The notes under the pieces were generated by a model. That model worked only from the letters and a program-made list of their open reading frames with translations. It was not told the origin of the DNA and searched no databases. A stretch of 64,000 nt of DNA, taken from Dehalococcoidia bacterium. Its GTDB lineage: Bacteria; Chloroflexota; Dehalococcoidia; Bin125. Of this stretch, positions 9,174-51,827 are shown piece by piece. Both the position numbers and the translations under genes were made by a program. The stretch spans positions 1,935,863 through 1,999,862 of the forward strand of contig OZ251457.1 in NCBI GenBank assembly GCA_965242565.1, in the 5' to 3' direction. The first letter of the stretch is position 1; every line of letters begins with the position of its first letter.

Positions 9174-9271
9174 ACCACCCCATCCTACCCGTCGGCCGGT
9201 GCGTGCCGCCGCGCTTGCCTCAACCCCGCATGCTGGCTAGCTTGCGCGTCGCGGGTGCGAACGGCGGCGGC

Positions 9272-19110: not shown

Positions 19111-19176
19111 TGCCGGAACCCGCGATTGCCACGGCGGCGCTACAATCAAGACCGGGTGAGCAAGAAGCGGCGACCG

Positions 19177-24129: not shown

Positions 24130-24168
24130 CATTGGGGCAACGGCCGGCGAACACTGAAGGAGGGCCAT

Positions 24169-25662
24169 GTGGCGCAATCGAGAGCATTCGGAACGACGCC
24201 GGCCCCGGAAATCCCCGACGGCCTCACCTGGCTTAACACCGGCCGCGACCTCACCATGGCCGACCTGCACGGGCGGCTCACCATCCTCCACTTCTGGACC
24301 TACGCTTGAATCAACTGCCTGCATGTGCTTCCGCAGTTGCGGAAGCTTGAGCGCCGCTACCCCGACACCGTCCAGGTCGTCTCCGTCCACTCGCCCAAAT
24401 TCCCCACCGAGCGCGAGACCGCCAACCTGCGCCAGGCCGTGCTGCGCCTGCGCATCGAGCACCCCGTGCTCAACGACGCCGACTTCCAGTTCTGGCAGCG
24501 CTACGGCGCGCGCGCCTGGCCCACCATCTTCTTCATCGACCCGCGCGGCAACGTGATCGGTCTGCACGAGGGCGAACTGACCGAGGACATGGCCGCCCCG
24601 CTGATCGACGGCTGGCTCGCCGAGTACCAACAGGAATCCGTGCTCGCTGGTGAGCCTCTCGCCCTGACCCGCGAAACCGGCGCAGAGAGCGCCCTCTCCT
24701 TCCCCGGCAAGGTCGCCTGGGACGACGCGAGCGGGCGGCTGATCGTCGCCGACACCAACAACGACCGCATCCTCGTCGCCGATCTCGAGGGCAACGTCTC
24801 GCTGGTCGTGGGCGGCGCGGGCGCGGGCTTCGAGGACGGTGGCGCGAGCGAGGCCAAGTTCAACCAGCCGCAAGGCGTCGCAATTGACGGCGACGCGATC
24901 TACGTCGCCGACAACGAAAACCACGCCATCCGCCGCATCGATCTGCCGTCGGGCGAAGTGCGAACCATCGCCGGCACCGGCGAGCAGGCGCGGATGATGC
25001 CCTCCGGCGCGCCCGCCGCCCAGACCGCGCTCAGCTCCCCCTGGGATGTCGCCGTGCGTGACGGACAGCTCTACATCGCCATGGCCGGCATCCACCAACT
25101 CTGGTCCATGGACCTGCGCGCCGGCGACTCCGCGACCGTCGCCCCTTGGGCCGGCAGCGGACGCGAGGGCATCGTCGACGGGCCCCGCGAGCAGGCCGAA
25201 CTCGCCCAGCCCAGCGGACTCGCCGTGGGCGAGTCGGGGTTGGCCTTCGCCGACAGCGAATCCAGCGGCGCGCGCGAGGTGACCTGGGACGGCCGCGTCG
25301 AAACCTTCATCGGCAAAATCGGCAGCCTCTTCCACTTCGGCGACGAAGACGGCGCCCGTGAGCGCGCCAAGCTCCAGCACCCGCTCGACCTCGCCTGGCT
25401 CGGCGACGAGCTCTACGTCGCTGACACCTTCAACCACAAAATCAAGCAGGTCTACCCGCGCATGCAGAGCGTCCAGACCGTCCTCGGCGGCCACGGCGAC
25501 GCCCTCGGCGCGTTCTCCGAAACCCAACTCAACGAGCCCGGCGGCCTCTGCGCCGGCCCCGACCGTTCCCTGATCGTCGCCGACACCAACAACCACCGCA
25601 TCGTCCAGCTCGACCTCGCCTCAGCCCGCTCCCGCGAAATCCCCCTCCGCCTCGATCGGTAG
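24169..25662 (+). CDS. Thioredoxin-fold (TlpA/redoxin-like) + NHL-repeat protein with in-frame UGA (Sec) at 24307-24309: candidate selenoprotein (UxxC)
   Basis: GTG 24169 lies 6 nt after the SD 'aaggagg'. The frame reads ...LTWLNTGRDLTMADLHGRLTILHFWTYA-[TGA]-INCLHVLPQLRKLERRYPDTVQVVSVHSP..., which is the WCxxC block of thioredoxin-fold oxidoreductases with TGA at the first Cys. Downstream are four NHL repeats (NNDRILVADLEGN, DNENHAIRRIDL, DTFNHKIKQV, DTNNHRIVQLDL). The ORF track split this gene into a wrong-frame piece (24167..) and 24325... Confidence 0.6.
24327..24346 (+). promoter_or_regulatory. SECIS-like RNA hairpin (8-bp perfect stem gcttccgc/gcggaagc, loop AGUU) starting 20 nt 3' of the UGA
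   Basis: Loop centre is about 28 nt from the UGA, with G-U in the apical loop. This fits bacterial SECIS spacing and loop criteria. Confidence 0.4.
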
Positions 25663-25690
25663 AGTGGGTGATCAGGGGAGGAGTCGAACG

Positions 25691-26719: not shown

Positions 26720-27224
26720 TGTCTGGATCTTCGACAGCTCGGGCATTATCGACATCCGCCGTGAGATCCCCGATACGCGAGCAGCCATCCGCCGCGAACT
26801 CCTCGCTCGGATGGCCGCGATGGTGGACGCGGAGGCGCTCTGCTTTCCCCATCAGGTGTACAGCGAACTGACTGCGCAACCGACGGACGACATCTTCGCA
26901 GTGTGGGCGAAACAGGTCCGCCGGGGCATCCGCCGCCACTACGCGCCGCCCGAATCGATAGTGCGCGAAGTGCTTGCGCGACAGCCGCTGCTCGCCGACG
27001 CGAGAAAGCAGACCGTGGACGCGGATCCCTACGTCGTTGCTCAGGCGCTCGCGATTCGGCGAGATGGGTCAAGCGTCGCAATCGTCACCCGGGACTACGT
27101 CGACAGGTTGCCGCACACAACCTCGATCGCAACCGCGTGCGACGATCCGGCAATCGCCGTTCCACACATGCGTTTGCCTGAGTTCTGCGACGCCATCGGC
27201 TTCGATCTGGCGCGCGATCCATAA
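26712..27224 (+). CDS. DUF4411-like (PIN-like) protein, partner of the ImmA/IrrE gene
   Basis: MPDVWIFDSSGIIDIRREIP... The start overlaps the upstream stop by 8 nt. DUF4411 genes classically follow HTH-ImmA genes. The call is from N-terminal pattern and context. Confidence 0.5.
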   Translation: MPDVWIFDSSGIIDIRREIPDTRAAIRRELLARMAAMVDAEALCFPHQVYSELTAQPTDDIFAVWAKQVRRGIRRHYAPPESIVREVLARQPLLADARKQTVDADPYVVAQALAIRRDGSSVAIVTRDYVDRLPHTTSIATACDDPAIAVPHMRLPEFCDAIGFDLARDP

Positions 27225-27591: not shown

Positions 27592-30500
27592 ATGCCCGCC
27601 CACGAACACACCATCAACACCGCCCTCGGCGAGGTCCTCCAGGAACTCCGACCCACCAGCTGGAACGTGCGCGCTGAAGAACGCGGAACGCTCCGGAACA
27701 GCGCAAAGCGCCCCGACATCCTGATCCTCGAACCCGCCGGTTGGCCCGTCGTGATCGAAGCCGAGCGCGAGAACTACGCCAGCGCCGAGCAAGACGCCCG
27801 CGCCCGCCTCGGCGAAACCGCCACAGGAGCCAGCGGCCGCATCGAAAGCGCCATCGCGCTCGTCTACCCGCCCGATGTCCGCGAGCAGACGGGCGGCAGA
27901 GCGATTCGCGCCGCGCTGAGAGCGACGGACGCTCTCGAGTACGCCCTCTACAGCGCCACCTCCGTCGATGCCGTCGAGCGCCTCCCCGAATCCGGCTGGC
28001 TGCGCGGCAACGTGCGCGACCTGGCGATGCTCGCCCAGCGCGCCGCCATTCCCGCCCAGCGCGTTGAGCGCCTGGTCGACGCGCTCGAATCCGGTGTGAG
28101 CGCGGCGGCGGGCGAGTTCAACCGCCGGCACCGCTCGCACGGCGTCGGCATCGGGGGAGCCGTCGCCGAGGTGTTGGGCCAGAGCGACGACCAGGCCGGG
28201 CAGACCCGCCTGATGGCGATGACCGTACTGATCAACGCGCTGATCTTCCACGAGTCGCTGGCGCAGGCCGGGCTGGCGCTGGACGACGAGCGGACCGTCG
28301 CGCTCGCGCAGCAGTTCAACTCAACCGCGTCGGGCTTCGATCAGCAGGCGATCATCGCGGAGTGGCGGGCGATCCTGGAGGTCAACTACTGGCCGATCTT
28401 CGCGACCGCCGGCGAGATTCTCCAGCGGCTCCCAATCGCGACCGCGAACGCCGTGCTGCAACCGCTCTGGGAAGCCGCCCGGCAGCTGATCCGCGGCGGC
28501 GTGACCAAGTCGCACGACCTGACCGGCGTGATCTTCCAGCGGTTGATCGCCGATCGCAAGTTTCTCGCCACCTACTACACGCGCCCGGCCGCCGCCGCGC
28601 TGCTGGCCGGCTTGGCGCTGCATCCGCGCGGCGCCTCCGACGGCGCGGGCTGGGGCGACGCGGAGGCGGTCGCCGGTCTCCAGATCGGCGATTTCGCCTG
28701 CGGCACGGGCACGTTGCTGGCGGCCGCCTACCAGCGCGTCTCGCTGCTGCACGAGCTGCACGGCGGCGACCCGCAGGCGCTGCACGCGCCGATGATGCGC
28801 GACGGCCTGGTCGGGCTGGATGTGCTCAACATCGCCGTGCATCTGACCGCCACGATGCTGGCCGGCAGCCATCCCGACACGCCGTTCGACGGCGACTGTC
28901 TGCTCACCATGCCCTACGGCACGCAGAACGGCGACTCGGTCGCGATCGGCTCGCTCGACCTGTTGGCCGCGGAGACGCAGGGCAACCTGATCGACGCCGC
29001 GGTGGCGATGACGGCGGGCGGCCACGCGCCCAAGGAGGTGCCGGACCTCGTCTCGCGGCTCGGACACGGCAAGTTCGACCTGGTGATCATGAATCCGCCG
29101 TTCACCCGCTACACCGGCAACGAGGGCTTCAAGATCGGCGCGGGCAATCCGGCCTTCGGCGCGTTCGAGACGACCGAGCACGACCGCGACCGCATGCGCC
29201 GCGCGTTGCAGCGCTCGCGCGGCGCCGGCACCTTGGGCGGCGGCAACGCCGGGCTGGCGGCGGATTTCCTGGACCTCGCGCTGCGCAAGCTGACCGAGCG
29301 CGGCGCACTGGCGCTGGTGCTGCCGCTGAGTGCGCTCAGCGGGGTGGACTGGCAGGCCGCGCGCGCCGCGCTGCGCAATCAGTTCGACGAGCTGACGGTC
29401 GTCACCGTGGCGGGCGCGAAGTCGGACGACTCGTCGTTCTCCGCCGACACGGGCATGGCCGACTGCCTGATCGTCGCCGCGCGGAGCGGCGCGCAGGCTG
29501 ATCGGCCGCGCGCGGAGCGGGCGCGGTTCATCGTGCTGGACGCGCGGCCGGGCTCCGCGCAGGAAGGCGCGCTGCTGGCCGCCGAGATCCTGCGGGCCGG
29601 CGCGAACGGATCGGTCGCGCGGCTGGAAGACCCGACCAGCAGCACGACGCTGCGGCTCGGCGGCGCGGCCTACGGCTCGATCGTCGACGCGCCGCTGCCG
29701 GACGAAGGCGGTTGGCCGATCGCCGGCGTCGCCGACCTGCAGCTGGCGGCGGCCGCGCACAACCTCGCCGGCTCCGGCGCGTTCCCGCTGCTCTTCCACG
29801 GCGACGACGGTGTGCGCATTCCGGTCGCGCCGCTGGGCGCAATCGCCGAACGCGGTCCGTATCACATGGACATCAAGGGCAAGAACAGCGACGGCACGGC
29901 GCGCGGCCCGTTCAGCATCACCCGCCCGCCGCGCGTGCCTGTGCCAACCTACCCGGTGCTCTGGAGGCACGACGCAAAGCGCGAGCGCACCTTGCAGATC
30001 GAGCCGGACACGCAGGGCGAGGTGATCAACGGCGCGACCGATGAAGAGCGGGCCGCCATTCTGCGCAAGACGCCCGAAGTCTGGGCCAGCGCCACCCGCG
30101 CCCACTACAACCGCGATCTACGGTTCAACTCGCAATCGCTGATCGCCGCGATGACGGAGCGGAAGTGCATCGGCGGGCGCGGCTGGCCGTCCGTGATCTT
30201 CGCGGACACCGCGCACGAGTACGCATTCGCGCTCTGGTGCAACTCCTCGATCGGCTTGCTGATCCACTGGTGGGTCAGCAACAAGACGCAGGCGGGGCGG
30301 GGCTCTACGCCGATCACGAGCATCCCCGCCATCCCAACGCTCGATACCCGCGCGCTGACCGATGCGCAGCACGCCGCCGCCCGCGAAGCGTTCGAAGCGA
30401 TGCGCGAACTCCGCTTCCTCCCGTTCGACCAGATCGACGAGGACCCGGCCCGCGCGGAGCTGGACCGCCGCCTGCTCGTCGACGTCCTCGGCCTGCCAGC

Positions 30501-30642
30501 TTCCCTCTGCGAGGAGGACGGCCCCATTGACCTGCTCCGCCACAAGCTCGCCAGAGAACCCCAAATCCACGGCGGCAAGAAATCCCGCGTCGTCTTCACC
30601 GAAGACGGCGAGAAAACCGAGCGCCGCACCGACCGCGATTAG
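27592..30642 (+). CDS. Fused restriction-modification enzyme, type IIG/IIL-like (N-terminal PD-(D/E)xK-like nuclease + gamma-class N6-adenine methyltransferase + C-terminal putative TRD)
   Basis: N-terminus RPDILILEPAGWPVVIEAERE (D...ExE/K-like). MTase motif I DFACGTGTLLAAAYQ precedes motif IV LVIMNPPFTRY (gamma order, as in MmeI/Eco57I-type enzymes). 1016 aa; no separate S or R gene nearby. Confidence 0.6.
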   Translation: MPAHEHTINTALGEVLQELRPTSWNVRAEERGTLRNSAKRPDILILEPAGWPVVIEAERENYASAEQDARARLGETATGASGRIESAIALVYPPDVREQTGGRAIRAALRATDALEYALYSATSVDAVERLPESGWLRGNVRDLAMLAQRAAIPAQRVERLVDALESGVSAAAGEFNRRHRSHGVGIGGAVAEVLGQSDDQAGQTRLMAMTVLINALIFHESLAQAGLALDDERTVALAQQFNSTASGFDQQAIIAEWRAILEVNYWPIFATAGEILQRLPIATANAVLQPLWEAARQLIRGGVTKSHDLTGVIFQRLIADRKFLATYYTRPAAAALLAGLALHPRGASDGAGWGDAEAVAGLQIGDFACGTGTLLAAAYQRVSLLHELHGGDPQALHAPMMRDGLVGLDVLNIAVHLTATMLAGSHPDTPFDGDCLLTMPYGTQNGDSVAIGSLDLLAAETQGNLIDAAVAMTAGGHAPKEVPDLVSRLGHGKFDLVIMNPPFTRYTGNEGFKIGAGNPAFGAFETTEHDRDRMRRALQRSRGAGTLGGGNAGLAADFLDLALRKLTERGALALVLPLSALSGVDWQAARAALRNQFDELTVVTVAGAKSDDSSFSADTGMADCLIVAARSGAQADRPRAERARFIVLDARPGSAQEGALLAAEILRAGANGSVARLEDPTSSTTLRLGGAAYGSIVDAPLPDEGGWPIAGVADLQLAAAAHNLAGSGAFPLLFHGDDGVRIPVAPLGAIAERGPYHMDIKGKNSDGTARGPFSITRPPRVPVPTYPVLWRHDAKRERTLQIEPDTQGEVINGATDEERAAILRKTPEVWASATRAHYNRDLRFNSQSLIAAMTERKCIGGRGWPSVIFADTAHEYAFALWCNSSIGLLIHWWVSNKTQAGRGSTPITSIPAIPTLDTRALTDAQHAAAREAFEAMRELRFLPFDQIDEDPARAELDRRLLVDVLGLPASLCEEDGPIDLLRHKLAREPQIHGGKKSRVVFTEDGEKTERRTDRD

Positions 30643-32700: not shown

Positions 32701-33861
32701 TCAGAGCGGCTCCGTCCCTTCACTCAGGATGTCCAGATACTCGCCGTAAGCGAAGAGCCGATTGCGGCGCTGGCCTGTGATCTCGCGCACAATGCCGAGC
32801 TCGGCGAGCAGCGCGGTCGCAACAGTGATGGTCGATGCAGCGATGCCTGCGTCCTCTTGAATCGCGGATGCGGAGAGAACGGGGCGTCGTATCAATGCAT
32901 CATGCACCCGCAGCGCCGCCATCGCGCGGCGTCCGGTCTGTTCGATCCGGCTGCGATCAGTGGCGAAGAGCGTCGAGAGTCGACGCGCGCTGCGCACTCC
33001 GTCTTCAGCGGTGATGCGTACGCCCCGGATGAAGAACTCGAGCCAACTCTCCCAATCTCCCAGGGTGCGCAGCTGGCTCAGATGATCGTAGTAGCGAGAT
33101 CGGAGTTCCTTGAAGTAGAGACTGAGGTAGAGGATCGGATCACTGAGGATGCCCGCATCGTGCAGCATCAGCACGATTAGGAGACGCCCGACCCGGCCGT
33201 TGCCGTCGAGGAACGGGTGGATGCTCTCAAACTGCGCGTGGACCAGGCCGGCGCGAACGAGCGCTGGTATACCGTCGTGCGTGTCGTGAATGAAGCGCTC
33301 GAGCGCAGCCATGCAGTCTTCGACTTCCGAGGCCGGCGGCGGCACATAGACAGCACGGCTCGGCCGTGGGCCGCCGATCCAGTTCTGCGAACGACGGAAT
33401 TCCCCCGGCAGCTTCTCGCTGCCCCGACCGGAGCGCAGAAGCACGCGATGCATCTCGCGGATCAGGCGATTGCTCAACGGCAGCCCCTCACGGAGAAGAC
33501 GCCGACCGTGCTCGAGCGCTGCGACGTAGTTGGACACCTCCGTCACATCGTCGATCTGCGCTTCCGGCGTGTGCCCAAGCTCGAACTGGAGGAAGTCGGT
33601 GAGCGACGACTGTGTGCCTTCGATCTGTGAAGAGAGGAGCGCTTCCCGACGCACGTAGGCGTAGAGGAAAAGGTCGCTGTTCGGCAGCTGCCGGGATTCT
33701 GCGTCGAGTCGTCCAAGCGCCACATGCGCCGCCTCCAGGGATTGCAGAAGCCAGTCGAACTCAAGCGGTGGATCCGGCGGCAGCGGTGGTGGAACGAACG
33801 CTCGCACCGTCTCGTCGGCGAAGGTCGTGACGACGTAACGACCCTTGTTCTCGCGTCGCAT
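32701..33861 (-). CDS. Fic family protein (canonical HPFxDGNGRxxR motif) with C-terminal winged-helix
   Basis: HPFLDGNGRVGRLLIVLML is the Fic active-site motif. N-terminal Fic_N-like region (LSSQIEGTQSSLTDFLQFE). Start ATG 33861 (MRRENKGRYVVT...). Confidence 0.75.
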   Translation of the reverse strand: MRRENKGRYVVTTFADETVRAFVPPPLPPDPPLEFDWLLQSLEAAHVALGRLDAESRQLPNSDLFLYAYVRREALLSSQIEGTQSSLTDFLQFELGHTPEAQIDDVTEVSNYVAALEHGRRLLREGLPLSNRLIREMHRVLLRSGRGSEKLPGEFRRSQNWIGGPRPSRAVYVPPPASEVEDCMAALERFIHDTHDGIPALVRAGLVHAQFESIHPFLDGNGRVGRLLIVLMLHDAGILSDPILYLSLYFKELRSRYYDHLSQLRTLGDWESWLEFFIRGVRITAEDGVRSARRLSTLFATDRSRIEQTGRRAMAALRVHDALIRRPVLSASAIQEDAGIAASTITVATALLAELGIVREITGQRRNRLFAYGEYLDILSEGTEPL

Positions 33862-33879
33862 GGCTGATTGCCTCTTTCG

Positions 33880-34060
33880 CGCGAACTTGGAATAGCGGGC
33901 CGCGCTATTTCGCCTACGTCGTGATCTTAGAATAGCACCACGGATTCGTAGGTCGCTATGAAAGAACTTGGAACAACGCGGAACAATGCCGCCCGCTGTT
34001 CCAAGTTTGTCACGTACTTGGAACAGCGGGCGGCATTGTTTTGAGTTGCGAACCTGGCGA
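33880..34060. promoter_or_regulatory. Operator-like repeats upstream of Fic gene
   Basis: '(g)aacttggaa(c/t)agcgggc' appears at 33884 and 34012. Inverted repeat 'cttggaaca-N21-tgttccaag' at 33960-34005. Confidence 0.35.
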
Positions 34061-34149
34061 CCTGTAGACGCCCTTGCTGGTCTGTAGAGCTGCCACGTTG
34101 GGCTACCTATGCCCTCGGTGTGGCAAGGCAACGGATGCGTTGCGCCCCA

Positions 34150-37603: not shown

Positions 37604-40600
37604 TTAACGAACCAGGAGCCCCCAACACCGGACAGTGCCGTCGTCGCGCAGCCCACAGGTGTGTCCGCCACCGGCGCTAACGGCGGCGAAGCGGTCGCTC
37701 GGCGCTTCCGTTTGGCCGGAGCCGTTCGTTCCCCAGCACTCGACAGCACCGCTCTCGCGCAGCCCGCAGGTGTGCCCGCGACCGGCGCTAACGGCGGCGA
37801 AGCGGTCGCTCGGCGCATCCGTTTGGCCGGAGCCGTTCGTTCCCCAGCACTCGACAGCACCGTTCTCGCGCAGCCCGCAGGTGTGCCAGCCACCGGCGCT
37901 AACGGCGGTGAAGCGGCCGCTCGGCGCATCCGTTTGGCCGGAGCCGTTCGTTCCCCAGCACTCGATGGCACCGCTCTCGCGCAGTCCGCAGGTATGGAAG
38001 CTGCCGGCGCTGACGGCGGTGAAGCGGCCGCTCGGCGCGTCAGCCTGTCCTCTATCGCCGGAAGCATAGGGGAGCTCCTCGGCTCCCCAGCACTCGACGG
38101 TGCCATCATAGCGCAGTCCGCAGGTGTGCTGGTCGCCTGCGGTAACGTCTCTGAAGCGTCCGCTAGGTGCGTCTATTTGGCCGAACTCACCGTATCCCCA
38201 GCATTCAACAGTGCCAGTTTCGCGCAGTCCGCAGGCGTGGCTGACAAGCTCGCTTCCATGGTACGAGCCAGTAGAACCAGTGCTGACGGCTATGAACCGC
38301 CCGTCAGGACTGCCGTATTGGGTGTATCCCCAACATTCGACGGTACCATCGTCGCGCAGCCCGCAGGTGCTGGTTGAGCTGGCGCTAATCGCGGAGAAGC
38401 GACGATTTTTAGGTGTGGACTCTCCGTATTCGTTCCGTCCCCAGCATTCGACGGTGCCGTCGTCGCGCAGCCCGCAGGTGTGATGCGTACCGGCGCTGAT
38501 GGCGGTAAACCGGCCACTAGGTGGGTCGGATGTGCCTCCCCAGCATTCGACAGTGCCGTTGTTGCGAAGCCCACAGGTGTGGGACCTACCAGCGCTGATG
38601 GCAGTAAACCGGCCGTTAGGTGAGTCGGATATGGTTCCCCAGCATTCGACAGTGCCGTCGTCGCGCAACCCACAAGTGTGAGAGCCACCCGTGCTGACGG
38701 CGGTGAATTGGCCACCGGGGTCATCGGACTGGCCTGCTCCGTTGCTCCCCCAACATTGAACGGTGCCATCATCGCGCAACCCACAGGTGTGGACGGAGGG
38801 GGTGTCGTCACTCCAAGTACCGGGCTGGCCCCAGCCGGCGCTAATCGCGGTAAATCGTCCTCTCGGCGCGTCGGACTGACCCAGATCGTTGTCTCCCCAG
38901 CATTCGACAGTGCCGTCGTCGCGCAGTCCGCAAGTGTGCCAGGCACCCGAGCTGATCGCGCTGAAGCGGCCGGCCGGAGCGTCGGCCCAGTCGCTGAAGT
39001 CACTTCCCCAGCATTCGACAGTACCGTCGTCGCGCAGTCCGCAAGTGTAGCCGCCGGCGCTGACGGCCTTAAAAGCACCAGGCTGCGGATGTCTCTGTCC
39101 AGAGCTGTTGTTTCCCCAACACTCGATTTCCCCGCTCACGCGCAGCCCGCAGGTGTGCCCACTGCCAGCGCTGACGGCCTGGAACACATCTTCGCCGCCC
39201 GCCAATTCCACACGCAGCTCGAACTCTCCGGTTTGCCCTGCACCGCGATTCGCCACCTCGATCGTGTACAGGCCGGCCTCCATCTCCGCGCGAGCCCAGT
39301 CCGACGCCTCCGTGAAGACGCGCACCGGCTTCGCCGTGCGACTCGTCTCCCGCGAGACGTAGACCGCGGAGCTCTGCTCCGAATCCAGCCCAAGAGTGGC
39401 CTCCTGCGCCTCATCCAGCTCGAACCGGTAGTAGCGCGCATAACTCCCGTCGAGCCGCTGCGACTGGCAGGCATGATTCCAGCGCCCCTTCACCGTGCCC
39501 TCGGTGATATCCCCGCCCCAGCACACCGACGGCGGCACGTCATATGCGACTGTGCCCAGACGCTCCTCGTCGTTGGCGATCAGCACCTTGAAGAACTCGA
39601 CACCACGCTGCACTCCATTCACGAGCTTCTCGCCCACCTTGTAGGCCCCGTACACTTTGATCAGCGCAGCCTTCTTAATCGTGACGCCAGCGTGCTGAGC
39701 GGCAGCGATTATCAGGTCGACCAGCGCTTCGCCCATCTCCGGCGTCAGGAGCACACCCGCCACCGTCTTCAGCGCCGCCTCACGGTTGCCGTTGTCCCAC
39801 TGGTTAAACGCTTGCACGAGGTCCTCGCTGCGCAGCAGTACTGATACCAGGTTGGTCAAGGCGGGTATCGGCACAGCGAAACCGATGACCTCTTCAACCA
39901 TCTCCTTGATCGGTTGGTAGAACACTGTCATGCCCGCCGCGGTCCAGGTCATCTCGGCATTCAACCGAACGGCCCCATCGCGCGTCGGCCGCCAGCTGCC
40001 GACTGCTCCCGGCGCGAGCAGGGTGCCCTCGTGATCGCTCAGCCACTTGTAGAGATCGACCGAAGTAGCGTGCTCAGGGTTGCCCTCAATCGGCCGCACT
40101 TCAAACCAGATGTGGCGCGGATTGCGCGCCAACAGCAGCGGCCCGTCGTCCGTCCGTTGAGCGCACCCTTTCAGGTACACGCCGACGATCCGATCGATGA
40201 GACTGCCGCCGGAGGGGTTGCGAACGGTCACGGTATCGTCGGGCTTCTCGCAGATGATCTGGTCTTTCAGCCCCAACTGCTCCGCTCCCCAATCCACCGT
40301 CCAGGTGATCCCGTCCCAGATGCCCTCCCCAATCGTCGTCACGCCTTCGACTATGTATCCGCCGATGTCTTCGAGGCCCTGGGCGACATCGCCGATCACC
40401 GGAAGACCCTTGACCTTCTTCCAGAAGCTCAGCGAGTCGGTTTGGACGATGATCTGATCGCCCTCGACCGTGAACGGTTCGAGAATCCAGTGTTCGCCGT
40501 TGTAGTGCGCCAGGAACCAGGTTTCGTCTTCGTCGGCCGGCGACGGCAGCGACAACGTCACCGTCCCGGTCAGCTCACCCTCCACCTCGAAGTCCCACGC

Positions 40601-41381
40601 GCCCAACGTCTCGGTTCCCCCGGCGGGCAAGGGCGGCAATTCTTCCTCGGAGACGACCCGAGCGGTGATCTTCGCGCCCACCGACGCCGCGCCGGGCGGC
40701 ACCGTGATCGCCGCTCCATCTTCCGCTACCGCGGTACCGCCGCCCGCGCCCACCTCGCCCTCCGTCGGCTCTGGCCGCTCCGCCGGCACGGCGATCAGGC
40801 TGCTGCGCAGCCACTTGCTCGCGCTGTTGTCAATCAGCCGCCGTGTCAGAAAGCGATTCGTCGGAAAAACATCGTCGCCCCCGCTCTGCTCCCCGCGCAC
40901 ATCCTCGCCCCAGCCCGGCCGGAAACCGAAGCCAATCCGCGTCAGCCGCCCGTTGTCGTCCACTTCGGCGCGGGCGATGATCCGCCCGCGCACGCCGTCC
41001 TCTGACCCGTCGGCGTCGGGAATCAGGATCTCGCTGCTGCGCAGCCAGCGCCCGGCGCTGCTCTCGATCAGCCGCTGCGTCAGGAAGCGGTTCGTCGGGA
41101 AGAGGTCGTCCGGCCCGTCGCCGCCTCCGCGCACATCCTCGCCCCAGGCCGGCCGAAAGCCGAACTCCACCCGCGTCAGCCGGCCGTCGTCGTCCACCCA
41201 CGGGGCCACTACGATCCGACCGTCGACGCTACTCACACTGTCATCCTGCGCATTCGCAGGCTGTGCCAAAACAAGCGCGGCGACGGCTGCGACAAGCGCC
41301 GCCAGCCCTATCAGCAGCGCCTTAGTGAGGGTTTTTACCCCCCCCCCCCCCGAGATCCATGCAAACGTGCAGACGCATGAG
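37604..41381 (-). CDS. Large secreted RCC1-repeat protein (paralog of 9272-13306, permuted domain order); reading frame disrupted or phase-shifted at a G14 tract near the 5' end
   Basis: Body frame: signal-peptide-like VKTLTKALLIGLAALVAAVAALVLAQPANAQDD. Two about 50-aa repeats (GRIIARAEVDDNGRLTRIGFGFRP...WLRSS). Central domain homologous to the paralog. About 18 RCC1-like 37-aa repeats at the C-terminal end. Candidate ATGs at 41381/41360 (SD gaggggaa) are +1 out of frame with the body because of the poly-G tract (14 G on the coding strand). Confidence 0.6.
41338..41351. repeat. Homopolymeric tract C14 (G14 on coding strand) between candidate start codon and signal-peptide coding region
   Basis: Direct count: 41338-41351 is all C. 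It is the only homopolymer of 10 nt or longer seen in the window. Confidence 0.9.
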
Positions 41382-41552
41382 CTGTTTCCCCTCTTGTCCG
41401 ACCTCCGCGATCCGGCGCACGGGCAGCAGACTACGGGCATGCGAACTGTTCGGTCAAACGAATGAGGGGACTTGGGCTGACGCGTCGCCAGTCCGCCGCT
41501 CAGAGGGAGGCGCGTACCCTGCCCCCAACCCTCGATCAGAAGGAGCACCCCA

Positions 41553-42044
41553 ATGACCCAGCGCGAACCCGCCAACATGCCTCCCGAAGCCCCCGCCCTC
41601 GACACCGAACCCATCCCCCCGCCCGACGACGCCCGCTTCGTCGTCAAGGCCGTCGCCGACATCCCCGAGACCGTCGGGCGCAACATCCACGCACGACGCA
41701 TGTTCACCGCCGCCGAGGGGCGCTTCGAGAGCTCGCTCTCCTTCGTCCTCTTCAACCGCCTGCCCGTCGGCGAGACCAACGTCCGCCACATCCACGAGGA
41801 CGTCGAGAAGGTCTACTACTTCCTGCGCGGCAACGCGGAGATCGACTGCGGCCCCTGGCGCGCCGCCGCCGCCGCCGGCGACTTCCTCTTCTTCCCCGCC
41901 GACATCGCCCACCAGATCCGCAGCCTCGGCCCCGACGACCTCGAATTCATCGTCTGCGCCGCCTCCACCGTCGGCGAGGCGCGCGGAATGTCCGACGGCG
42001 GCCTGCTCGACCAGCCGGCCGGCGACGGCGAGGACGCCTCATGA
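41553..42044 (+). CDS. Cupin domain protein
   Basis: RHIHEDVEKVYYFLRGNAEIDCG...AGDFLFFPADIAHQIRSLG is the cupin two-motif pattern. Confidence 0.6.
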   Translation: MTQREPANMPPEAPALDTEPIPPPDDARFVVKAVADIPETVGRNIHARRMFTAAEGRFESSLSFVLFNRLPVGETNVRHIHEDVEKVYYFLRGNAEIDCGPWRAAAAAGDFLFFPADIAHQIRSLGPDDLEFIVCAASTVGEARGMSDGGLLDQPAGDGEDAS

Positions 42045-46087: not shown

Positions 46088-47224
46088 ATGGCCAGCAGCA
46101 TCTACTACTCGTGCGACTCCCACGTGGTCGAAGCCCCCGAAGTCTTCGACGGACTCGTCGACCGCTTCGGCGACCGCGCCCCCCGCGTGGTCGACAAGTG
46201 GAAGGACCGCGAAGCCGTCTTCGTCGCCTGGCCCAGCATCGACTTCGCCATGTCCGTCGGACGCCTCGGCATCGCCGGCGCCAACCTCAACCTGCCCGAA
46301 ACCAAGGAGAAGATCGCCCGCGGCTGGGACCTGATCAACCCTGGCGTCAAAGACCCCGTCGCGCGCCTCTCCGAGCAGGAGCAGGACGGCATCGTCGGCG
46401 AGGTCATGTACCCCTCGATCAACATGCTCACCTACATGGTCGACGACGTCGAAGTCGTCAACGCCGTCTTCCAGCGCCACAACGACTGGATCCGCGACTA
46501 CTGCTCGCACGCCCCCGAACGGCTGATCGGCGTCGGCTGCGTCACCCTGCGCGACGTCGACCTCGCCATCGCCGAGCTCAAGCGCTGCGCCGACATGGGC
46601 ATCAAGGGCGTCGCCATCCCCTGCACCGCGCCCGCCGACAAGCCCTACTCCGCCCCCGACTACGAGCCCTTCTGGGAGGCCGCCGAAGACATCGGCCTGC
46701 CGCTCACCATGCATATCTTCTGCGGCTCCGAGCCCGGCATGAGCCTGCCCAAGGAGTGGGACCAGGTCGTCTCCTACACCCTCGCCCACGCCGCCGCCTG
46801 GAACACCGTCTCCAACCTCGTCACCTCCGGCGTCTGCGAGCGCCACCCCAACCTCCGCTTCGTCATGGCCGAGTGGGAAACCGGCTGGATCGCCCATGTC
46901 CTCCAGCGCTGGGACCACGCCTACTACCGCGCCCGCGCCGTCGACCAGACGCCCGAACTGCCGATGCTGCCCACCGAATACTTCCGCCGCAACTTCATGG
47001 TCACCTTCGAGGACGACGACATCGGCGTCCAAACCCGCGAGCAGATCGGCGTCGAAAACCTGCTCTGGGGCAACGACTACCCCCACCACGACGCGATCTG
47101 GCCCAACAGCCGCAAGATCCTCGACGAGATCATGGCCGGCGTCCCCGCCGAAGAGGAAGAGGCGATGGTCTGGGGCAACGTCCAAAAGCTCTACAACATC
47201 AACCGCGCCGCCCTCCCGGCCTGA
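46088..47224 (+). CDS. Amidohydrolase-2 (ACMSD-like metal-dependent hydrolase/decarboxylase) family protein
   Basis: YYSCDSHVVEAPEVF..., ...HIFCGSEPG..., NLLWGNDYPHHDAIWPNS are Amidohydro_2 signatures. Confidence 0.75.
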   Translation: MASSIYYSCDSHVVEAPEVFDGLVDRFGDRAPRVVDKWKDREAVFVAWPSIDFAMSVGRLGIAGANLNLPETKEKIARGWDLINPGVKDPVARLSEQEQDGIVGEVMYPSINMLTYMVDDVEVVNAVFQRHNDWIRDYCSHAPERLIGVGCVTLRDVDLAIAELKRCADMGIKGVAIPCTAPADKPYSAPDYEPFWEAAEDIGLPLTMHIFCGSEPGMSLPKEWDQVVSYTLAHAAAWNTVSNLVTSGVCERHPNLRFVMAEWETGWIAHVLQRWDHAYYRARAVDQTPELPMLPTEYFRRNFMVTFEDDDIGVQTREQIGVENLLWGNDYPHHDAIWPNSRKILDEIMAGVPAEEEEAMVWGNVQKLYNINRAALPA

Positions 47225-47251
47225 GGCCGGCCGCCATCGCTTTGAGATCAC

Positions 47252-47275
47252 GTGATCTCAAAGCGATTGTTGGGC
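47252..47275. terminator. 24-bp perfect palindrome (ctttgagatcacgtgatctcaaag) just 3' of the amidohydrolase gene; terminator or operator
   Basis: Perfect self-complementarity followed by gattgtt. It lies in a locally AT-richer segment (47230-47450). Confidence 0.4.
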
Positions 47276-47304
47276 CGGTGAAAAGGCTCATCGGATCGCT
47301 AAGA

Positions 47305-47440
47305 ACCTGTCAGTGTCAATGATTCTGACACTAAACTGACAGTTCCAGCGACGCCTGATGGCGATCTGGTAGCGTATGCCGCGCCGTCCTGATACTGTCA
47401 GTGTCAGCGAAATTGACACTCAACTGACAGTTCCGCAAAG
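47305..47440. promoter_or_regulatory. Two about 40-bp nested-palindrome operator-like sites (ctgtcagtgtcaNNgaNNNtgacactNaactgacagttcc) upstream of Fic gene 2
   Basis: Copies at 47309-47348 and 47395-47435 are nearly identical. Each contains ctgtcag...ctgacag and gtgtca...tgacac inverted pairs. Confidence 0.45.
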
Positions 47441-47449
47441 GGACGTCAT

Positions 47450-48799
47450 ATGCGGCTGCCTGAGCCCTCCCCACCCCTGCCGGCCCTGATGCGCGAGTTC
47501 CAGTCGCTCGATCCGGAGCGCCAGGTCCGCCTGATCGACGAGTCGGAAACGCTTGACTCCAAAGGCCGCTACCTGCATTGGGATCAAGTCCGCCGCCGTC
47601 CACCGCCGGACGGACTGTCGCACCGCGCCTGGTGGCTCGGATTTGTTCTCGCGCGTCGCACCGGGCGCCAACGACTGCCGCTGCTCGGCAAGGGCGGCCT
47701 GCCCTTCTGGTTCTGTCACGTTGCGCCGGTGCTGGCGCCGCTGCAACGCCTCGACCGCGAGATGGCGGGCCACATCCTGCTTGACGAGCGCGTCGTCGAC
47801 CGCAGCGATCGCGACCGTTACCTGGTGAGCTCGCTGATGGAGGAGTCGATCCGCTCCAGCCAGCTCGAGGGCGCCAACACGACGCGACTCGCCGCGCGGG
47901 AAATGCTCCGCTCCGGGCGTCGCCCGCGCGATCAGGGCGAGCGAATGATCTTCAACAACTTCGCCGCCATGACCACCGTGGAGCGCTGGGCTCAGGACAG
48001 CCGTGCCGTCACCCCCGACCGCCTGCTCACGCTGCACGAAATCGTGACCCGCGACACCCTCGGCGATCCCGCTGACTCGGGGCGGATCCAGCAGCCCGGC
48101 GAAGCCCGGGTCTCAGTCGTATCCGGCGACGGCTCTGTGGTGCATACGCCGCCGCCCGCTGAAGAGCTGCCGGAGCGGATCGAACGTCTCTGCGCGTTCG
48201 CCGCCGGCGACCTCGACGAGGGCTATCTCCACCCCGCCATCCGCGCCATCCTGCTCCACTTCATGATCGGCTACGACCACCCCTTCGTCGACGGCAACGG
48301 CCGCACCGCCCGCGCCCTCTTCTACTGGAGCCTGTTGCGCTCCGGCTACTGGCTCGCCTCTTATCTCTCGATCTCCAACCTGCTGCGCGCGGCGCCCAGC
48401 AGGTACTCCCGCGCCTATGAGTACGTCCACGCTGATGCCAACGATGCCACCTACTTCCTCATCCACCAGCTGAGCGTGATCGAGCGCGCCGCTGATCAGC
48501 TGCAGGAGTACATCGCCCGGCAGACGCGCCGCGCCGCCGCCGTCGCGCTGGCGCTCAAACAGATCCGCGGCCTCAACAAGCGGCAAGAATTCGTGCTTGA
48601 GCGGGCGCTGCGCCAGCCGGACGCGGAATTCACCGTCGCGGGACACGAGATCGAATATCGGGTCTCCTACGGCAGCGCCCGCTCCGACCTCACCGATCTG
48701 GTTGAGCGCGGCCTGCTGATCCGGCGGCGCAGCGGCAAAAAATTCGTCTTCCGCCCCGCCCCGGACCTCCCCGACCGCCTCGGCGGCGATGCGCGCTAG
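47450..48799 (+). CDS. Fic family protein (second copy; HPFVDGNGRTAR motif)
   Basis: HPFVDGNGRTARALFYWSLL is the Fic motif. N-terminal Fic_N region (SSQLEGANTTRLAAREM). C-terminal winged-helix-like tail. The start may instead be MREFQSL at about 47489. Confidence 0.75.
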   Translation: MRLPEPSPPLPALMREFQSLDPERQVRLIDESETLDSKGRYLHWDQVRRRPPPDGLSHRAWWLGFVLARRTGRQRLPLLGKGGLPFWFCHVAPVLAPLQRLDREMAGHILLDERVVDRSDRDRYLVSSLMEESIRSSQLEGANTTRLAAREMLRSGRRPRDQGERMIFNNFAAMTTVERWAQDSRAVTPDRLLTLHEIVTRDTLGDPADSGRIQQPGEARVSVVSGDGSVVHTPPPAEELPERIERLCAFAAGDLDEGYLHPAIRAILLHFMIGYDHPFVDGNGRTARALFYWSLLRSGYWLASYLSISNLLRAAPSRYSRAYEYVHADANDATYFLIHQLSVIERAADQLQEYIARQTRRAAAVALALKQIRGLNKRQEFVLERALRQPDAEFTVAGHEIEYRVSYGSARSDLTDLVERGLLIRRRSGKKFVFRPAPDLPDRLGGDAR

Positions 48800-48802
48800 C
48801 CT

Positions 48803-49717
48803 GTGGAGGAGGAGGCGCACATGCCGTCGGAACGCGAGGAAGCCGGGCTGCCGCACTATCCCGAACTGCGCTGGGTCACGTTGCAGGCGATGCGCGCCAT
48901 GCCGCTTCCGGCGTCGAACGCGGAGATCAACGAGGCCGTCGCCGACGCGCTTGGCCTGACCGACGAGCAGCGAGCCGTGATGCACTACCAAAGCTCCGGC
49001 ACTCGCCGGACGGAGTTGGAGTATCGCGTCGCTTGGGCGCGGACTGCTCTGCGGGTCGCGGGCGCAATCGACAGCGCCGGTCGCGCCGCGTGGACCGTGA
49101 CGGCTGAAGGCCGCCGAATTCGTCAGGATGTCATCAATCGGCGCTACGAGAGGCATTTGGCCGAACGCGCCGAACAACGCAGGCAGCAACAGGGAGTCGA
49201 CGCGCCAACGCCGCCCGTTGACAACGGGCCCGAATCGCCTGCTGATGTCGATTGGAAAGAGCAACTGCTCGCCCGGTTGGGCGAACTGTCGCCTGCCGGA
49301 TTCGAACGACTCGCTGGCCGTCTGCTCGTCGCGGCGGGATTCCACGATGTCGACGTACTCGGTCAGAGCGGCGACGGTGGGATCGACTGCGTCGGCATGT
49401 ACCGTCTGTCGTTGATCTCGTTCCCAACCTACGTTCAGTGCAAGCGCTATCAAGGATCGGTGAGCGCCGGCATGGTCCGTGATTTGCGCGGCGCGATGGT
49501 CGGTCGCGGAGATCGCGGTCTCCTGATCACCACCGGTACCTTCACCAAAGCCGCTCAATCCGAAGCGACACGCGACGGAGCGCCGCCAATCGAACTGATC
49601 AACGGCGAGGCGCTCTGCGACTTGCTCAAAGAATACGAACTCGGTGTCCGCGCCACGAAGCGCACCGTCGAAGACATCGATATCGAAGACGACTACTTCG
49701 AGAGGCTCGAACCATGA
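48803..49717 (+). CDS. mrr: Mrr-family type IV restriction endonuclease (Mrr_N winged helix + Mrr_cat PD-(D/E)xK)
   Basis: N-terminal Mrr_N-like segment (LRWVTLQAMRAM...INEAVADALGLTDEQRAV...SGTRRTELEYRVAWARTAL). Catalytic segment GQSGDGGIDCVG...YVQCKRYQG. Confidence 0.75.
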   Translation: MEEEAHMPSEREEAGLPHYPELRWVTLQAMRAMPLPASNAEINEAVADALGLTDEQRAVMHYQSSGTRRTELEYRVAWARTALRVAGAIDSAGRAAWTVTAEGRRIRQDVINRRYERHLAERAEQRRQQQGVDAPTPPVDNGPESPADVDWKEQLLARLGELSPAGFERLAGRLLVAAGFHDVDVLGQSGDGGIDCVGMYRLSLISFPTYVQCKRYQGSVSAGMVRDLRGAMVGRGDRGLLITTGTFTKAAQSEATRDGAPPIELINGEALCDLLKEYELGVRATKRTVEDIDIEDDYFERLEP

Positions 49718-50826
49718 CCAACCAACCCACCGTCGCCGTACTCCCCGGCGACGACGCCGCGCCCGAAGCGGTGCATGCCGTGATGACCGTGCTCCAGGCG
49801 ATGGTATTGCCCATCGAGTGGCGCATTCTGCCCGATGGCGAGGAGATCGCCCGCACGATGTCCCGCGAAGAGGGCGAAGCCTTGGTCCGCAACGCCGCCG
49901 ATGAGTGCGATACCGTGCTTTTCGGCTCCACCAATGGCCAGACGCCCGGCGTCGGTTACTTCCGCTGGGGCCGCGAAACATACGCCAACGTGCGGCCCAT
50001 TCGCTGGCGGTCCGGCTTTCGCTCGCCGCTTGCCGATCCCGAGGGCATCGACTACGTGATCGTGCGCGAAAACCTCGAAGACCTCTACGCCGGCATCGAG
50101 GGCGACCTCGCTGAGGTCGCGGCCTCCGGCATCGCCGACGGACCGCGCGTGGGCGGCGTCTCGCGCACGCCGATCGCGGGCGGCTTCCAACACTTCGCCG
50201 AGGCCGAAGGACGTTACGCCATCAAGTACTTCACCCGCGCCAACGTCGAGCGCGTCGCCCACTTCGCCTGCCGCCTCGCGCAGCGCCGCCGCGGGCAGGG
50301 GCATCCCGGCAAGCTCACCTGCTCCGCCAAAACAAACGTACTGCGCCGCAGCGACGGCTGGTTCGTCGAAATCGCCGGCGAGGTCGCCGCCGGCTACCCC
50401 GACATCGAATTCGAAACGTTTATCGCCGACGATTTCGCCCGCCGCCTCGTCGCCAGCCCGCACGACCTCGACGTCGTCCTGCTCCCCAACCTCTACGGCG
50501 ATATCTTCTCCGACGAGGGCGCGGGCACCATCGGCGGCCTCGGCCTCGCGCCCTCCGGCTGCTTTGGCGACGACTGGGCCTACTTCGAATCCGTCCACGG
50601 CACCGCGCCCGACATCGCCGGCCAGCACCGCATTAACCCCACCGCTACGATGCTCTCCGCCGCGATGATGCTCGACCACCTCGGCCTCTCCGAGCAGGGC
50701 GCCCAACTCGAGCGCGCCGTCGAAGCGACCTACGCCGCCGGCGACCGCCTCACCCCCGACCAGGGCGGCGACGCCACCACCGAGCAGTTCGCCGAAGCCG
50801 TCTTGGACGCGCTCGCCATATCCTGA
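49714..50826 (+). CDS. Isocitrate/isopropylmalate dehydrogenase family protein (tartrate/IPM dehydrogenase-like)
   Basis: NLYGDIFSDEGAGTIGGLGLAPSG and HGTAPDIAGQ...NPTATMLSAAMML are family signatures. ATGA overlap with mrr. Confidence 0.8.
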   Translation: MTNQPTVAVLPGDDAAPEAVHAVMTVLQAMVLPIEWRILPDGEEIARTMSREEGEALVRNAADECDTVLFGSTNGQTPGVGYFRWGRETYANVRPIRWRSGFRSPLADPEGIDYVIVRENLEDLYAGIEGDLAEVAASGIADGPRVGGVSRTPIAGGFQHFAEAEGRYAIKYFTRANVERVAHFACRLAQRRRGQGHPGKLTCSAKTNVLRRSDGWFVEIAGEVAAGYPDIEFETFIADDFARRLVASPHDLDVVLLPNLYGDIFSDEGAGTIGGLGLAPSGCFGDDWAYFESVHGTAPDIAGQHRINPTATMLSAAMMLDHLGLSEQGAQLERAVEATYAAGDRLTPDQGGDATTEQFAEAVLDALAIS

Positions 50827-50839
50827 TCACGGGTGTGGA

Positions 50840-50937
50840 TGGCGGGAGCGCATGGGAGTCGAACCCACCCGAGACGGCGCGGGCCGCCCCGCAACGGTTT
50901 TGAAGACCGGGAGGGCCACCGGGCCCCTTCCGCTCCC
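50840..50937 (-). tRNA. selC: tRNA-Sec (selC), anticodon UCA
   Basis: Minus-strand sequence GGGAGCGG-AA-GGGGCC-CGGT-GGCCCT-CCCGGT-CTTCAAA-ACCGTT-(24-nt extra arm GCGGGGCGGCCCGCGCCGTCTCGG)-GTGGG-TTCGACT-CCCAT-GCGCTCCC-G-CCA. D-stem 6 bp with 4-nt loop CGGT. Anticodon loop CU-UCA-AA. T-loop TTCGACT as in E. coli selC. 9-bp variable-arm stem. Discriminator G and encoded CCA. About 8-nt acceptor strands (one G-G mismatch at the last pair). Confidence 0.7.
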
Positions 50938-50967
50938 ACGCTCACTCTACCCGACCAGCCGCGCCGA

Positions 50968-51396
50968 CTAGCGATCGGGCACCGCGAGATGCATGTCCCC
51001 GGCGACGACGAGCTTCTGAAGCGCCCGCGACAGCCGCGGCGTTTCTCGATGTAGTCCACTGATCTCGCTGTGCGACGGGAAGCCGGCGAGCGGAGCATGC
51101 CTGATGTGCAAGAACTGCCCGGGCCGCAACCGTGCCGCATCTCTCGCCTGTCCCACGTTGATCACCGCGAATCGGCCGTTCCGTCGCAACCGCAGGTTCG
51201 CCCCAACCTCACGGCCCAGATCGTTGAATGTAGCCTCGTCCGCCACATCCCCAAAGTGCTCGACCCAAACGACCGATAAGGGCGCGTCGAGCGGTTCCGG
51301 CACGAACGCATCCAGCAGCGGCAGCCCGTCCACGACCATCCGTGGACTGCAATAGCGGGCGACGTGATCGGCGTCCGGTAGGTCGTCGCCCGTCAT
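50968..51396 (-). CDS. Hypothetical protein (142 aa), second gene of a two-gene cassette next to selC
   Basis: ORF with ATGA overlap with the upstream ORF. No family recognised. Confidence 0.35.
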   Translation of the reverse strand: MTGDDLPDADHVARYCSPRMVVDGLPLLDAFVPEPLDAPLSVVWVEHFGDVADEATFNDLGREVGANLRLRRNGRFAVINVGQARDAARLRPGQFLHIRHAPLAGFPSHSEISGLHRETPRLSRALQKLVVAGDMHLAVPDR

Positions 51397-51827
51397 CGAC
51401 GCAGCAGCCTGTCAATGAACGGTTGCATCGCAACCTCGGCCTCAGCCGGTGTCAGCGTGCTGTTGACGGGTGCGCAATTCGGCATGCGCTCGGGCTCGTC
51501 GAACGCTGCGTAGATGCGGATCAGACCGTCGGCCAGGAAGGTCAGCGCCACAATTCCGGGAGGATCGAGCAACCACTCGATCTGAACGAGCCCGTTGGGC
51601 TTTACGCCGATGCGCGGATCGGGCAGCGTGGAGCACCGTCGCAACAGCTCGGCGAACCGGCGCAGCGACTCGATGTTGATCGGCTCCTCGTCCGGATCGT
51701 CGCCGTCCAGGCTGAGCAGATACGTCACGCGCTCTGCCGCTGTGAAGCGTTGACGCGCCTCGAGCTCGCGCACGATCTCATCGGCGCGCGGGTCCGCCGG
51801 CGTCGACTGCTCCCGTAGTGTCGTCAT
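51393..51827 (-). CDS. Hypothetical protein (144 aa), first gene of two-gene cassette
   Basis: ORF only; no family recognised. Confidence 0.35.
   Translation of the reverse strand: MTTLREQSTPADPRADEIVRELEARQRFTAAERVTYLLSLDGDDPDEEPINIESLRRFAELLRRCSTLPDPRIGVKPNGLVQIEWLLDPPGIVALTFLADGLIRIYAAFDEPERMPNCAPVNSTLTPAEAEVAMQPFIDRLLRR

Follow-up and report, generated by a model that had tools for sequence, protein, structure and literature searches.

A selenocysteine tRNA gene in a Chloroflexota contig

The window analyzed here is a 64 kb stretch of contig OZ251457.1 from an uncultured Chloroflexota bacterium, and the element under study is a 98-base stretch within it, at positions 50840..50937 on the minus strand. 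This stretch is a genuine selenocysteine tRNA (tRNA-Sec) gene, selC, with the anticodon UCA, the bacterial 8/5 form, the discriminator base G73, and an encoded CCA; all of the testable defining features of a bacterial tRNA-Sec are present in it. The identification draws on ARAGORN, Rfam family RF01852, synteny, and covariation. ARAGORN reported only one tRNA in the 64 kb window, a tRNA-SeC at 50840-50937 (-) with the anticodon tca at position 35. The sole Rfam match above threshold in the whole window (cmscan) was to tRNA-Sec, RF01852, at 50844-50937 (-), with a score of 69.7 bits (E value, 3.5e-12) against a gathering score of 47 bits and coverage of model positions 1 to 91 of 91. A tRNA-Sec with this anticodon, strand, and position had been proposed earlier from reading the letters alone; both programs agree with that original prediction, and the tRNA-Sec models, far from rejecting the sequence, score it far over threshold.

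The acceptor strands, GGGAGCGG and GCGCTCCC (the 3' strand also being written GCGCUCCC), form seven Watson-Crick pairs plus a G8-G opposition. An AA linker leads from the acceptor to the D arm, GGGGCC-CGGU-GGCCCU, in which a 6-bp stem with one G-U pair closes a loop of 4 nucleotides (nt), and the anticodon loop has the 7 nt CUUCAAA. The 24-nt extra arm folds into a 9-bp stem, two of whose pairs are G-U, with a 4-nt loop, and the T arm reads GUGGG-UUCGACU-CCCAU. The eight acceptor positions and the 5-bp T stem give a 13-bp acceptor/T branch in the 8/5 configuration, and the 3' end consists of the discriminator G and a CCA encoded in the DNA. Each part of the structure as it had first been described, that is, the acceptor, D, anticodon, extra, and T arms and the terminal G and CCA, was found where it had been placed. 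The long extra arm and G73, which are identity elements for seryl-tRNA synthetase (SerRS), are both present.

The tRNA was also compared with E. coli selC, using a reference sequence that matches, with 100% identity, the tRNA-Sec annotated in 5425 out of 5426 genomes of this species. E. coli selC and the RF01852 model share with the window tRNA the UCA anticodon, the 8-bp acceptor and 5-bp T stem, the 6-bp D stem with its CGGU loop, the long extra arm, G73, and the encoded CCA. The T loop, UUCGACU, is identical to that of E. coli, as had been claimed, and in both tRNAs the T stem opens with a G-U pair. The window tRNA differs from E. coli selC in its G-G eighth acceptor pair, found in 44% of the homologues sampled, in the two C-U oppositions at the top of the anticodon stem, and in the 9-bp length of the extra-arm stem.

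Allo-tRNAs and selC*-type tRNAs with the anticodon UCA exist in bacteria, and the gene might be a look-alike of this kind, that is, an allo-tRNA or a selC*-type tRNA-Cys that reads UGA as serine or cysteine without SelA or SelB. In favor of this, an 8/4 form of tRNA-Sec has been reported in Chloroflexi and Actinobacteria (PMC5389517), and no sel genes are linked to the locus. However, allo-tRNAs and the selC* tRNA-Cys(UCA) have a 12-bp branch (8/4 or 9/3), with U73 in the case of selC* (Mukai et al. 2016, PMC5389517), whereas the window tRNA has a 13-bp 8/5 branch and G73, and its full-length match to the Rfam tRNA-Sec family is well over threshold. We regard a look-alike as most improbable.

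Conservation and covariation of selC

The family of a neighboring 142-residue protein (c142) was used as bait to fetch the genomic contexts of its members, which fell into 13 clusters. Six of the loci (L001, L002, L003, L009, L010, and L011) are syntenic with the window, L001 being carried by the 3.24 Mb contig ena:ERZ25067264:ctg836596_20x_c. A tRNA-Sec occupies the same place in all six, which supports the original prediction. The common gene order is NUDIX, a 144-residue protein (c144), c142, and tRNA-Sec, followed by a convergent series of Iso_dh, Mrr (not in every locus), Fic, and Amidohydro_2. Across these loci selC is 95 to 100% identical, while the adjoining c142 protein falls to 61 to 64% identity. 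The DNA flanking selC is far more divergent than selC itself, a 241-nt alignment that includes the tRNA having a mean column identity of 75%. The tRNA-Sec genes of the relatives score 66.5 to 71.3 bits against RF01852, and the few substitutions within the lineage keep pairing, with C-G exchanged for U-A at extra-arm pair 55:60 and G-U exchanged for G-C in the D stem.

More distant homologues were collected with a degenerate pattern scan of a species-representative genome collection, which gave at least 120 tRNA-Sec loci, the window's own lineage not being among those listed. Most of the listed loci are from Chloroflexota, Acidobacteriota, and Poribacteria. The nearest tRNAs among the matches listed show 84 to 87% identity and come from Limnocylindria-type and other Chloroflexota metagenome-assembled genomes (MAGs). 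The Limnocylindria-type tRNAs in this range (for example, L029, L064, L079, L089, L097, and L101) have an acceptor 3' strand and a T arm identical to those of the window tRNA, with the G8-G opposition included, and differ from it in the sequence of the extra arm.

Covariation was assessed over a sample of 110 distinct homologous tRNA-Sec sequences (alignment A4). Under the 8/5 cloverleaf, 89% of the cells were paired, compared to 47 to 54% in controls with slid partners; double changes were seen in 25 of 34 pairs, and the observed covariation score was reached by 0 of 500 shuffles. Pairing amounts to 92% in the acceptor and 99% in the T stem, both of which contain compensatory changes, the D helix is 97% paired with four covarying pairs, and every one of the nine pairs in the extra-arm stem covaries. 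The discriminator G is invariant in all 110. The cloverleaf has a few weak positions, pair 8:90 being unpaired in 48 of the 110 homologues, pair 27:45 in 95, and pair 28:44 in 15. The comparison of the syntenic loci shows selC to be conserved under selection.

In those 48 tRNAs, some of which are encoded within sel operons, the non-Watson-Crick eighth acceptor pair (8:90) is usually G-G. Chloroflexota-type tRNA-Sec seems either to tolerate such a pair or to be under selection for it.

A candidate selenoprotein gene in the same window

In an open reading frame (ORF) called at 24325-25662, the match to Pfam Thioredoxin_8 began only at profile position 20, which pointed to a redox motif located before the called start. 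The upstream translation, from a GTG start at 24169, reads ...LTILHFWTYA-TGA-INCLHVLPQL..., and the Thioredoxin_8 domain is complete in Pfam only when the TGA is read through. The resulting gene, at 24169..25662 (+), has 497 codons and an AAGGAGG ribosome-binding site at 24157-24163 (+), and its predicted selenocysteine (Sec) codon is the TGA at 24307-24309 (+), in the motif U-I-N-C. The read-through product aligns with human NHLRC2 (PDB 6GC1) over residues 12 to 487, on both sides of the TGA, with an E value of 6.8e-107, and also with plant SOQ1 (PDB 7DJJ). In these alignments TGA 24307 falls on the first Cys of the C-I-N-C active-site motif of NHLRC2 and SOQ1. The window protein has the same two-domain architecture as these proteins, a thioredoxin (Trx)-like domain and an NHL beta-propeller, and the gene is a candidate selenoprotein homologue of them. 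It differs from them in having UGA (Sec) in place of the first motif Cys, followed by a hairpin that resembles a selenocysteine insertion sequence (SECIS), and in lacking the extra C-terminal domain, with 497 amino acids compared to 579 to 667 in the solved chains. TGA 24307 is the only credible in-frame TGA of the window. Another candidate, at 48115 (-), was rejected as an antisense artifact within a Fic gene.

The SECIS-like hairpin, GCUUCCGC-AGUU-GCGGAAGC at 24327..24346 (+), was obtained by RNA folding and has an 8-bp stem that starts 17 nt after the UGA and an apical loop 25 nt after it. At the Sec column, metagenome loci have TGA in 20 cases and Cys (TGC or TGT) in 31. The hairpin, in the same register and with the AGUU loop, was found in 13 of 13 distinct Sec forms, with compensatory changes from C-G to U-A, and a positionally conserved hairpin was absent from 27 Cys forms. 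The Cys homologues match PF08534, PF00578, and PF13905. A permissive Rfam scan of the hairpin region gave only chance matches and no match to a curated SECIS family. A conserved hairpin of the SECIS type after the client UGA is a hallmark of SelB-dependent decoding, and it argues against a tRNA that reads UGA without SelB. The combination of UGA, alignment to Cys, and hairpin is what normally marks a selenoprotein gene in bacteria, and we predict this gene to be one.

The approximately 95 closest protein clusters, at 55 to 98% identity, are all truncated at about 445 amino acids, and the truncation is N-terminal, as would be expected if gene callers stop at the TGA. Some of the truncated clusters are named "alkyl hydroperoxide reductase [Chloroflexi bacterium]." More distant homologues, with 45 to 51% identity, are full length. 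The 46 codons upstream of the TGA evolve like coding DNA, with in-frame conservation and many synonymous changes, and on a syntenic circular contig of 2.96 Mb (L210; ena:ERZ19489113:s510.ptg000605c) the gene has been called as a 46-amino-acid ORF and a 443-amino-acid ORF.

A 2026 inventory of prokaryotic selenoproteins contains UxxC entries described as "thiol-disulfide isomerase-like (cd02966)" and "Redoxin family protein (PF08534)," for which it gives MGB1650493.1 and HEU0032618.1, respectively, as examples (PMC13188914). Like these entries, the window protein is a thioredoxin-fold UxxC selenoprotein by prediction; it differs in that no NHL or NHLRC2-type architecture is mentioned there, the string "NHL" occurring 0 times in the inventory (PMC13188914). 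No link of NHLRC2 to selenocysteine in bacteria was found in a literature search, and no NCBIfam selenoprotein model reaches its cutoff on the Trx-NHL protein. The protein may already have an entry with a generic name, or it may have none. It is possible, though rather doubtful, that the Sec form of Trx-NHL, with its U-I-N-C motif and near-invariant AGUU hairpin, represents an undescribed or uncurated selenoprotein family that is widespread in soil Chloroflexota and marine metagenomes, is routinely misannotated in MAG records, and is a main reason that this lineage keeps an unlinked selC.

Linkage to the selenocysteine machinery

To place the locus among other selC genes, the ORFs flanking the at least 120 tRNA-Sec loci were clustered, and the cluster representatives were scanned with Pfam. 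Among the listed loci, the commonest neighbors of selC are SelB (27 loci), SelA (22 loci), and SelD (14 loci), and the closest relatives of the window tRNA among the matches listed have a selD-selC-selA-selB arrangement. The adjacency of these nearest homologues to selD, selA, and selB is a further point against a look-alike that acts without SelA or SelB. In contrast to the Limnocylindria-type tRNA-Sec genes in their selD-selC-selA-selB cluster, the window selC stands apart in a lineage-specific neighborhood. A tblastn search with all of the clustered neighbor proteins found nothing in the window or in loci L001 to L011, and the window's synteny around the tRNA was found in none of the at least 120 loci listed. 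In the window lineage, as far as the window and these loci indicate, selC is unlinked from the sel genes and lies between a conserved dehydrogenase gene and a two-gene module. E. coli selC is likewise unlinked from selAB and selD, and a separation of selC from the sel genes is not unusual. The selA, selB, and selD genes are presumably located elsewhere in the genome, outside the 64 kb.

Taken together, we estimate a probability of about 0.93 that this is a functional selC gene of an uncultured Chloroflexota bacterium with a G+C content of ~68%, accompanied by a Sec-dependent client in the same window. The window selC appears to be in use, since the Trx-NHL gene in the same window has an in-frame UGA that would require it; as a selenoprotein gene, Trx-NHL would make this lineage dependent on a functional tRNA-Sec. 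A number of observations weigh against this assignment. In the tRNA itself, the acceptor stem carries a G-G mismatch, and the anticodon stem has only four Watson-Crick pairs, its top two positions being C-U mismatches in the cmscan alignment, a detail missing from the original prediction. A simple scan for sigma-70 promoters and terminators around selC detected neither a full promoter nor a terminator. Pfam scans of the 64 kb window revealed no gene for SelA, SelB, SelD, or formate dehydrogenase, and none is present up to 10 kb from the tRNA in any of the six syntenic relatives; the best 120 SelA homologues are all of the Limnocylindrales type, none being linked to the window lineage. The original prediction was to fall if the genome had a different, better selC and no Sec machinery linked to this locus. 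No Sec machinery is linked to it, but a Sec client gene lies 26 kb away, and the prediction is not refuted.

Some of these same points would fit a decaying relic, a tRNA-Sec gene left behind after the loss of Sec decoding and without function: the acceptor (G8-G) and the upper part of the anticodon stem carry mismatches, and neither the window nor the 20-kb syntenic loci contain Sec machinery. However, the tRNA has stayed nearly constant while its flanks diverged, and the changes that it did accumulate keep pairing. The mismatches of the window selC are common among the 110 homologues, including those inside sel operons, and are therefore not signs of decay. In addition, the gene with UGA and hairpin has been kept intact not only in the window but also by the close relative L210 and by Sec forms farther away, with the frame upstream of the UGA conserved. 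A relic is for these reasons extremely unlikely, and a selC in working order is the preferred reading.

Promoter and immediate flanks

A -10-like TAnnnT box, TAGAGT, lies at 50945..50950 (-), 7 nt before the 5' end of the mature tRNA, and may belong to a promoter of selC's own. All of the loci retain such a box at 7-12 nt upstream, and its T..A...T is invariant in a seven-locus alignment that includes L002, where the upstream gene is different; the retention of the box even there suggests that selC is driven by its own promoter. On the other side, the Iso_dh stop codon of L001 and L009 to L011 starts right after the CCA of the tRNA, leaving a spacer of 0 nt, and the corresponding spacer in the window is 13 nt (50826-50840). 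The convergent transcripts of selC and Iso_dh may overlap, a terminator not being detectable.

Neighboring genes

Coding frames in this genome of ~68% G+C were picked by third-position G+C and named by Pfam. The gene next to the tRNA 3' end encodes an Iso_dh-family dehydrogenase (49714..50826, +; PF00180, 1.9e-72), which converges on the tRNA across a 13-nt gap. All of its NCBIfam matches are under the equivalog cutoff, and the gene is conserved in all of the syntenic relatives. It is overlapped by the gene for an Mrr type IV restriction enzyme with Mrr_N and Mrr_cat domains (48803-49717, +; PADLOC mREase_IV, 4e-31), before which lies a SoFic-like Fic gene (47450-48799, +; PADLOC SoFic, 4.7e-36), and an Amidohydro_2 gene is found farther out on the same 3' side of the tRNA (46088-47224, +). 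The original prediction had the tRNA 3' end abutting a Fic and Mrr block. The block is indeed on that side, but the abutting gene is Iso_dh, with Mrr and Fic upstream of it.

On the 5' side, and on the same strand as the tRNA, are c144 (51393-51827, -) and c142 (50968-51396, -), which are joined by an ATGA overlap; the c142 stop codon is 30 nt upstream of the tRNA. This pair corresponds to the two-gene cassette that had been placed 30 nt from the tRNA, and neither ORF has a family match in Pfam, NCBIfam, or PADLOC scans. NUDIX, DUF4956, and VTC genes lie beyond c144 on the tRNA strand. The c142 family is a rare one, and its distant members (L004 to L008) retain the pair and the ATGA overlap away from any tRNA-Sec and in unrelated contexts. 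Conserved residues in the module include DHVARYC, LSVxWxE, NGRFAV, and SH. An AlphaFold2 model of c142, built from a 14-sequence alignment, had a mean pLDDT (predicted local distance difference test) of 40.5 and was unusable. The c144/c142 pair forms a module of its own, and nothing evident connects it with selenium.

In enterobacteria selC serves as an attachment site for integrated islands, and it had been suggested that 47230-50830, with Fic and Mrr, may be such an insertion next to the tRNA. Both Fic and Mrr do score as defense genes in PADLOC, the third-position G+C of Mrr and c144/c142 is 0.74 to 0.80 compared to 0.84 to 0.94 in the neighbors, and the intergenic DNA ahead of Fic has a lower G+C content. 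The gene content near the tRNA also varies among relatives: Mrr is missing in L001, L001 and L002 have a DUF4268 gene (PADLOC candidate system PDC-S11) flanking the c144/c142 pair on either side, and L010 and L011 contain a PIN pair. However, Pfam scans of all flanking genes revealed no integrase or recombinase nearby, and neither end of the tRNA is repeated anywhere in the window. Queries of 27 nt and 17 nt from the tRNA 3' end and of 22 nt from its 5' end, with two to three mismatches allowed, returned self-matches only over the whole window, while a repeat scan of 43-56 kb gave only chance GC-rich repeats. The block moreover includes the Iso_dh gene, which is conserved, of housekeeping type, host-like in codon usage, and overlapping with Mrr. 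Every relative whose locus is long enough has both Fic and Iso_dh, down to 61% identity of the neighbor protein; the L003 locus breaks off within Fic. An island integrated at selC, as in enterobacteria, is very unlikely here, and the proposed insertion is not borne out. The relatives differ by single-gene insertions and deletions of defense genes and not by one island, and the neighborhood is therefore better viewed as a small hotspot of defense-gene turnover than as an integrase-mediated island, so far as the compared loci allow it to be read.

Two copies of a 40-nt direct repeat precede Fic, at 47307-47346 and 47395-47434 (+); they share 85% identity and lie 88 nt apart. Each of them holds an interrupted palindrome, CTGTCAGTGTCA...TGACACTnnACTGACAG, with an operator-like look, and a related motif, CTGTCAATGTCA...TTGACAC, is found upstream of Fic in L001, L009, L010, and L011. 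Just past the Amidohydro_2 stop codon, at 47241-47268 (+), is a near-perfect 28-nt palindrome, CGCTTTGAGATCACGTGATCTCAAAGCG, which might act as a terminator-like hairpin or be bound by a protein; L002 has a similar palindrome.

Other features of the window

A second Fic-domain gene is present at 32701-34131 (-). It encodes Fic_N and helix-turn-helix (HTH) domains, has a low third-position G+C of 0.70, and differs from the Fic gene near the tRNA. Two very large proteins of 1367 and 1395 amino acids, with 12 to 13 RCC1 repeats, are encoded at 9203-13306 (+) and 37604-41791 (-). Three segments, 25664-27224, 27592-30642, and 19126-21084, have no counterpart at the corresponding place in L210, the relative with the 2.96 Mb contig. 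They contain, respectively, a pair of HTH/IrrE-M78 and DUF4411 genes, a 1016-amino-acid ORF without a Pfam match, and an SH3-domain ORF; the HTH/M78 and DUF4411 pair and the SH3 ORF have a low third-position G+C. L210 has a BglII-like endonuclease and methylase pair instead. These three segments are strain-specific insertions.

Implications

The use of this tRNA would follow the known bacterial route. SerRS would charge it with serine, SelA would turn the serine into selenocysteine with selenophosphate supplied by SelD, and SelB would bring the tRNA to UGA codons that precede a SECIS hairpin. In the client at 24169-25662, the Trx-NHL oxidoreductase, such a UGA would replace the first Cys of a C-x-x-C redox motif. 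We infer aminoacylation and conversion of the window tRNA from its features, and nothing in its sequence contradicts serylation, conversion by SelA, or binding by SelB.

The selC gene itself is ordinary, textbook biology; it is not a new kind of element and opens no new question. It is mildly noteworthy only for its separation from the sel operon, compared to the nearest Chloroflexota, and for the client gene. The practical value of the finding is in annotation, as pipelines based on ORFs miss selC and split or truncate the Trx-NHL client gene. With selC and the UGA/SECIS gene considered together, this uncultured Chloroflexota lineage very likely decodes selenocysteine, and recognition of the UGA gives back to a redox protein of the NHLRC2/SOQ1 type what would be its catalytic residue.

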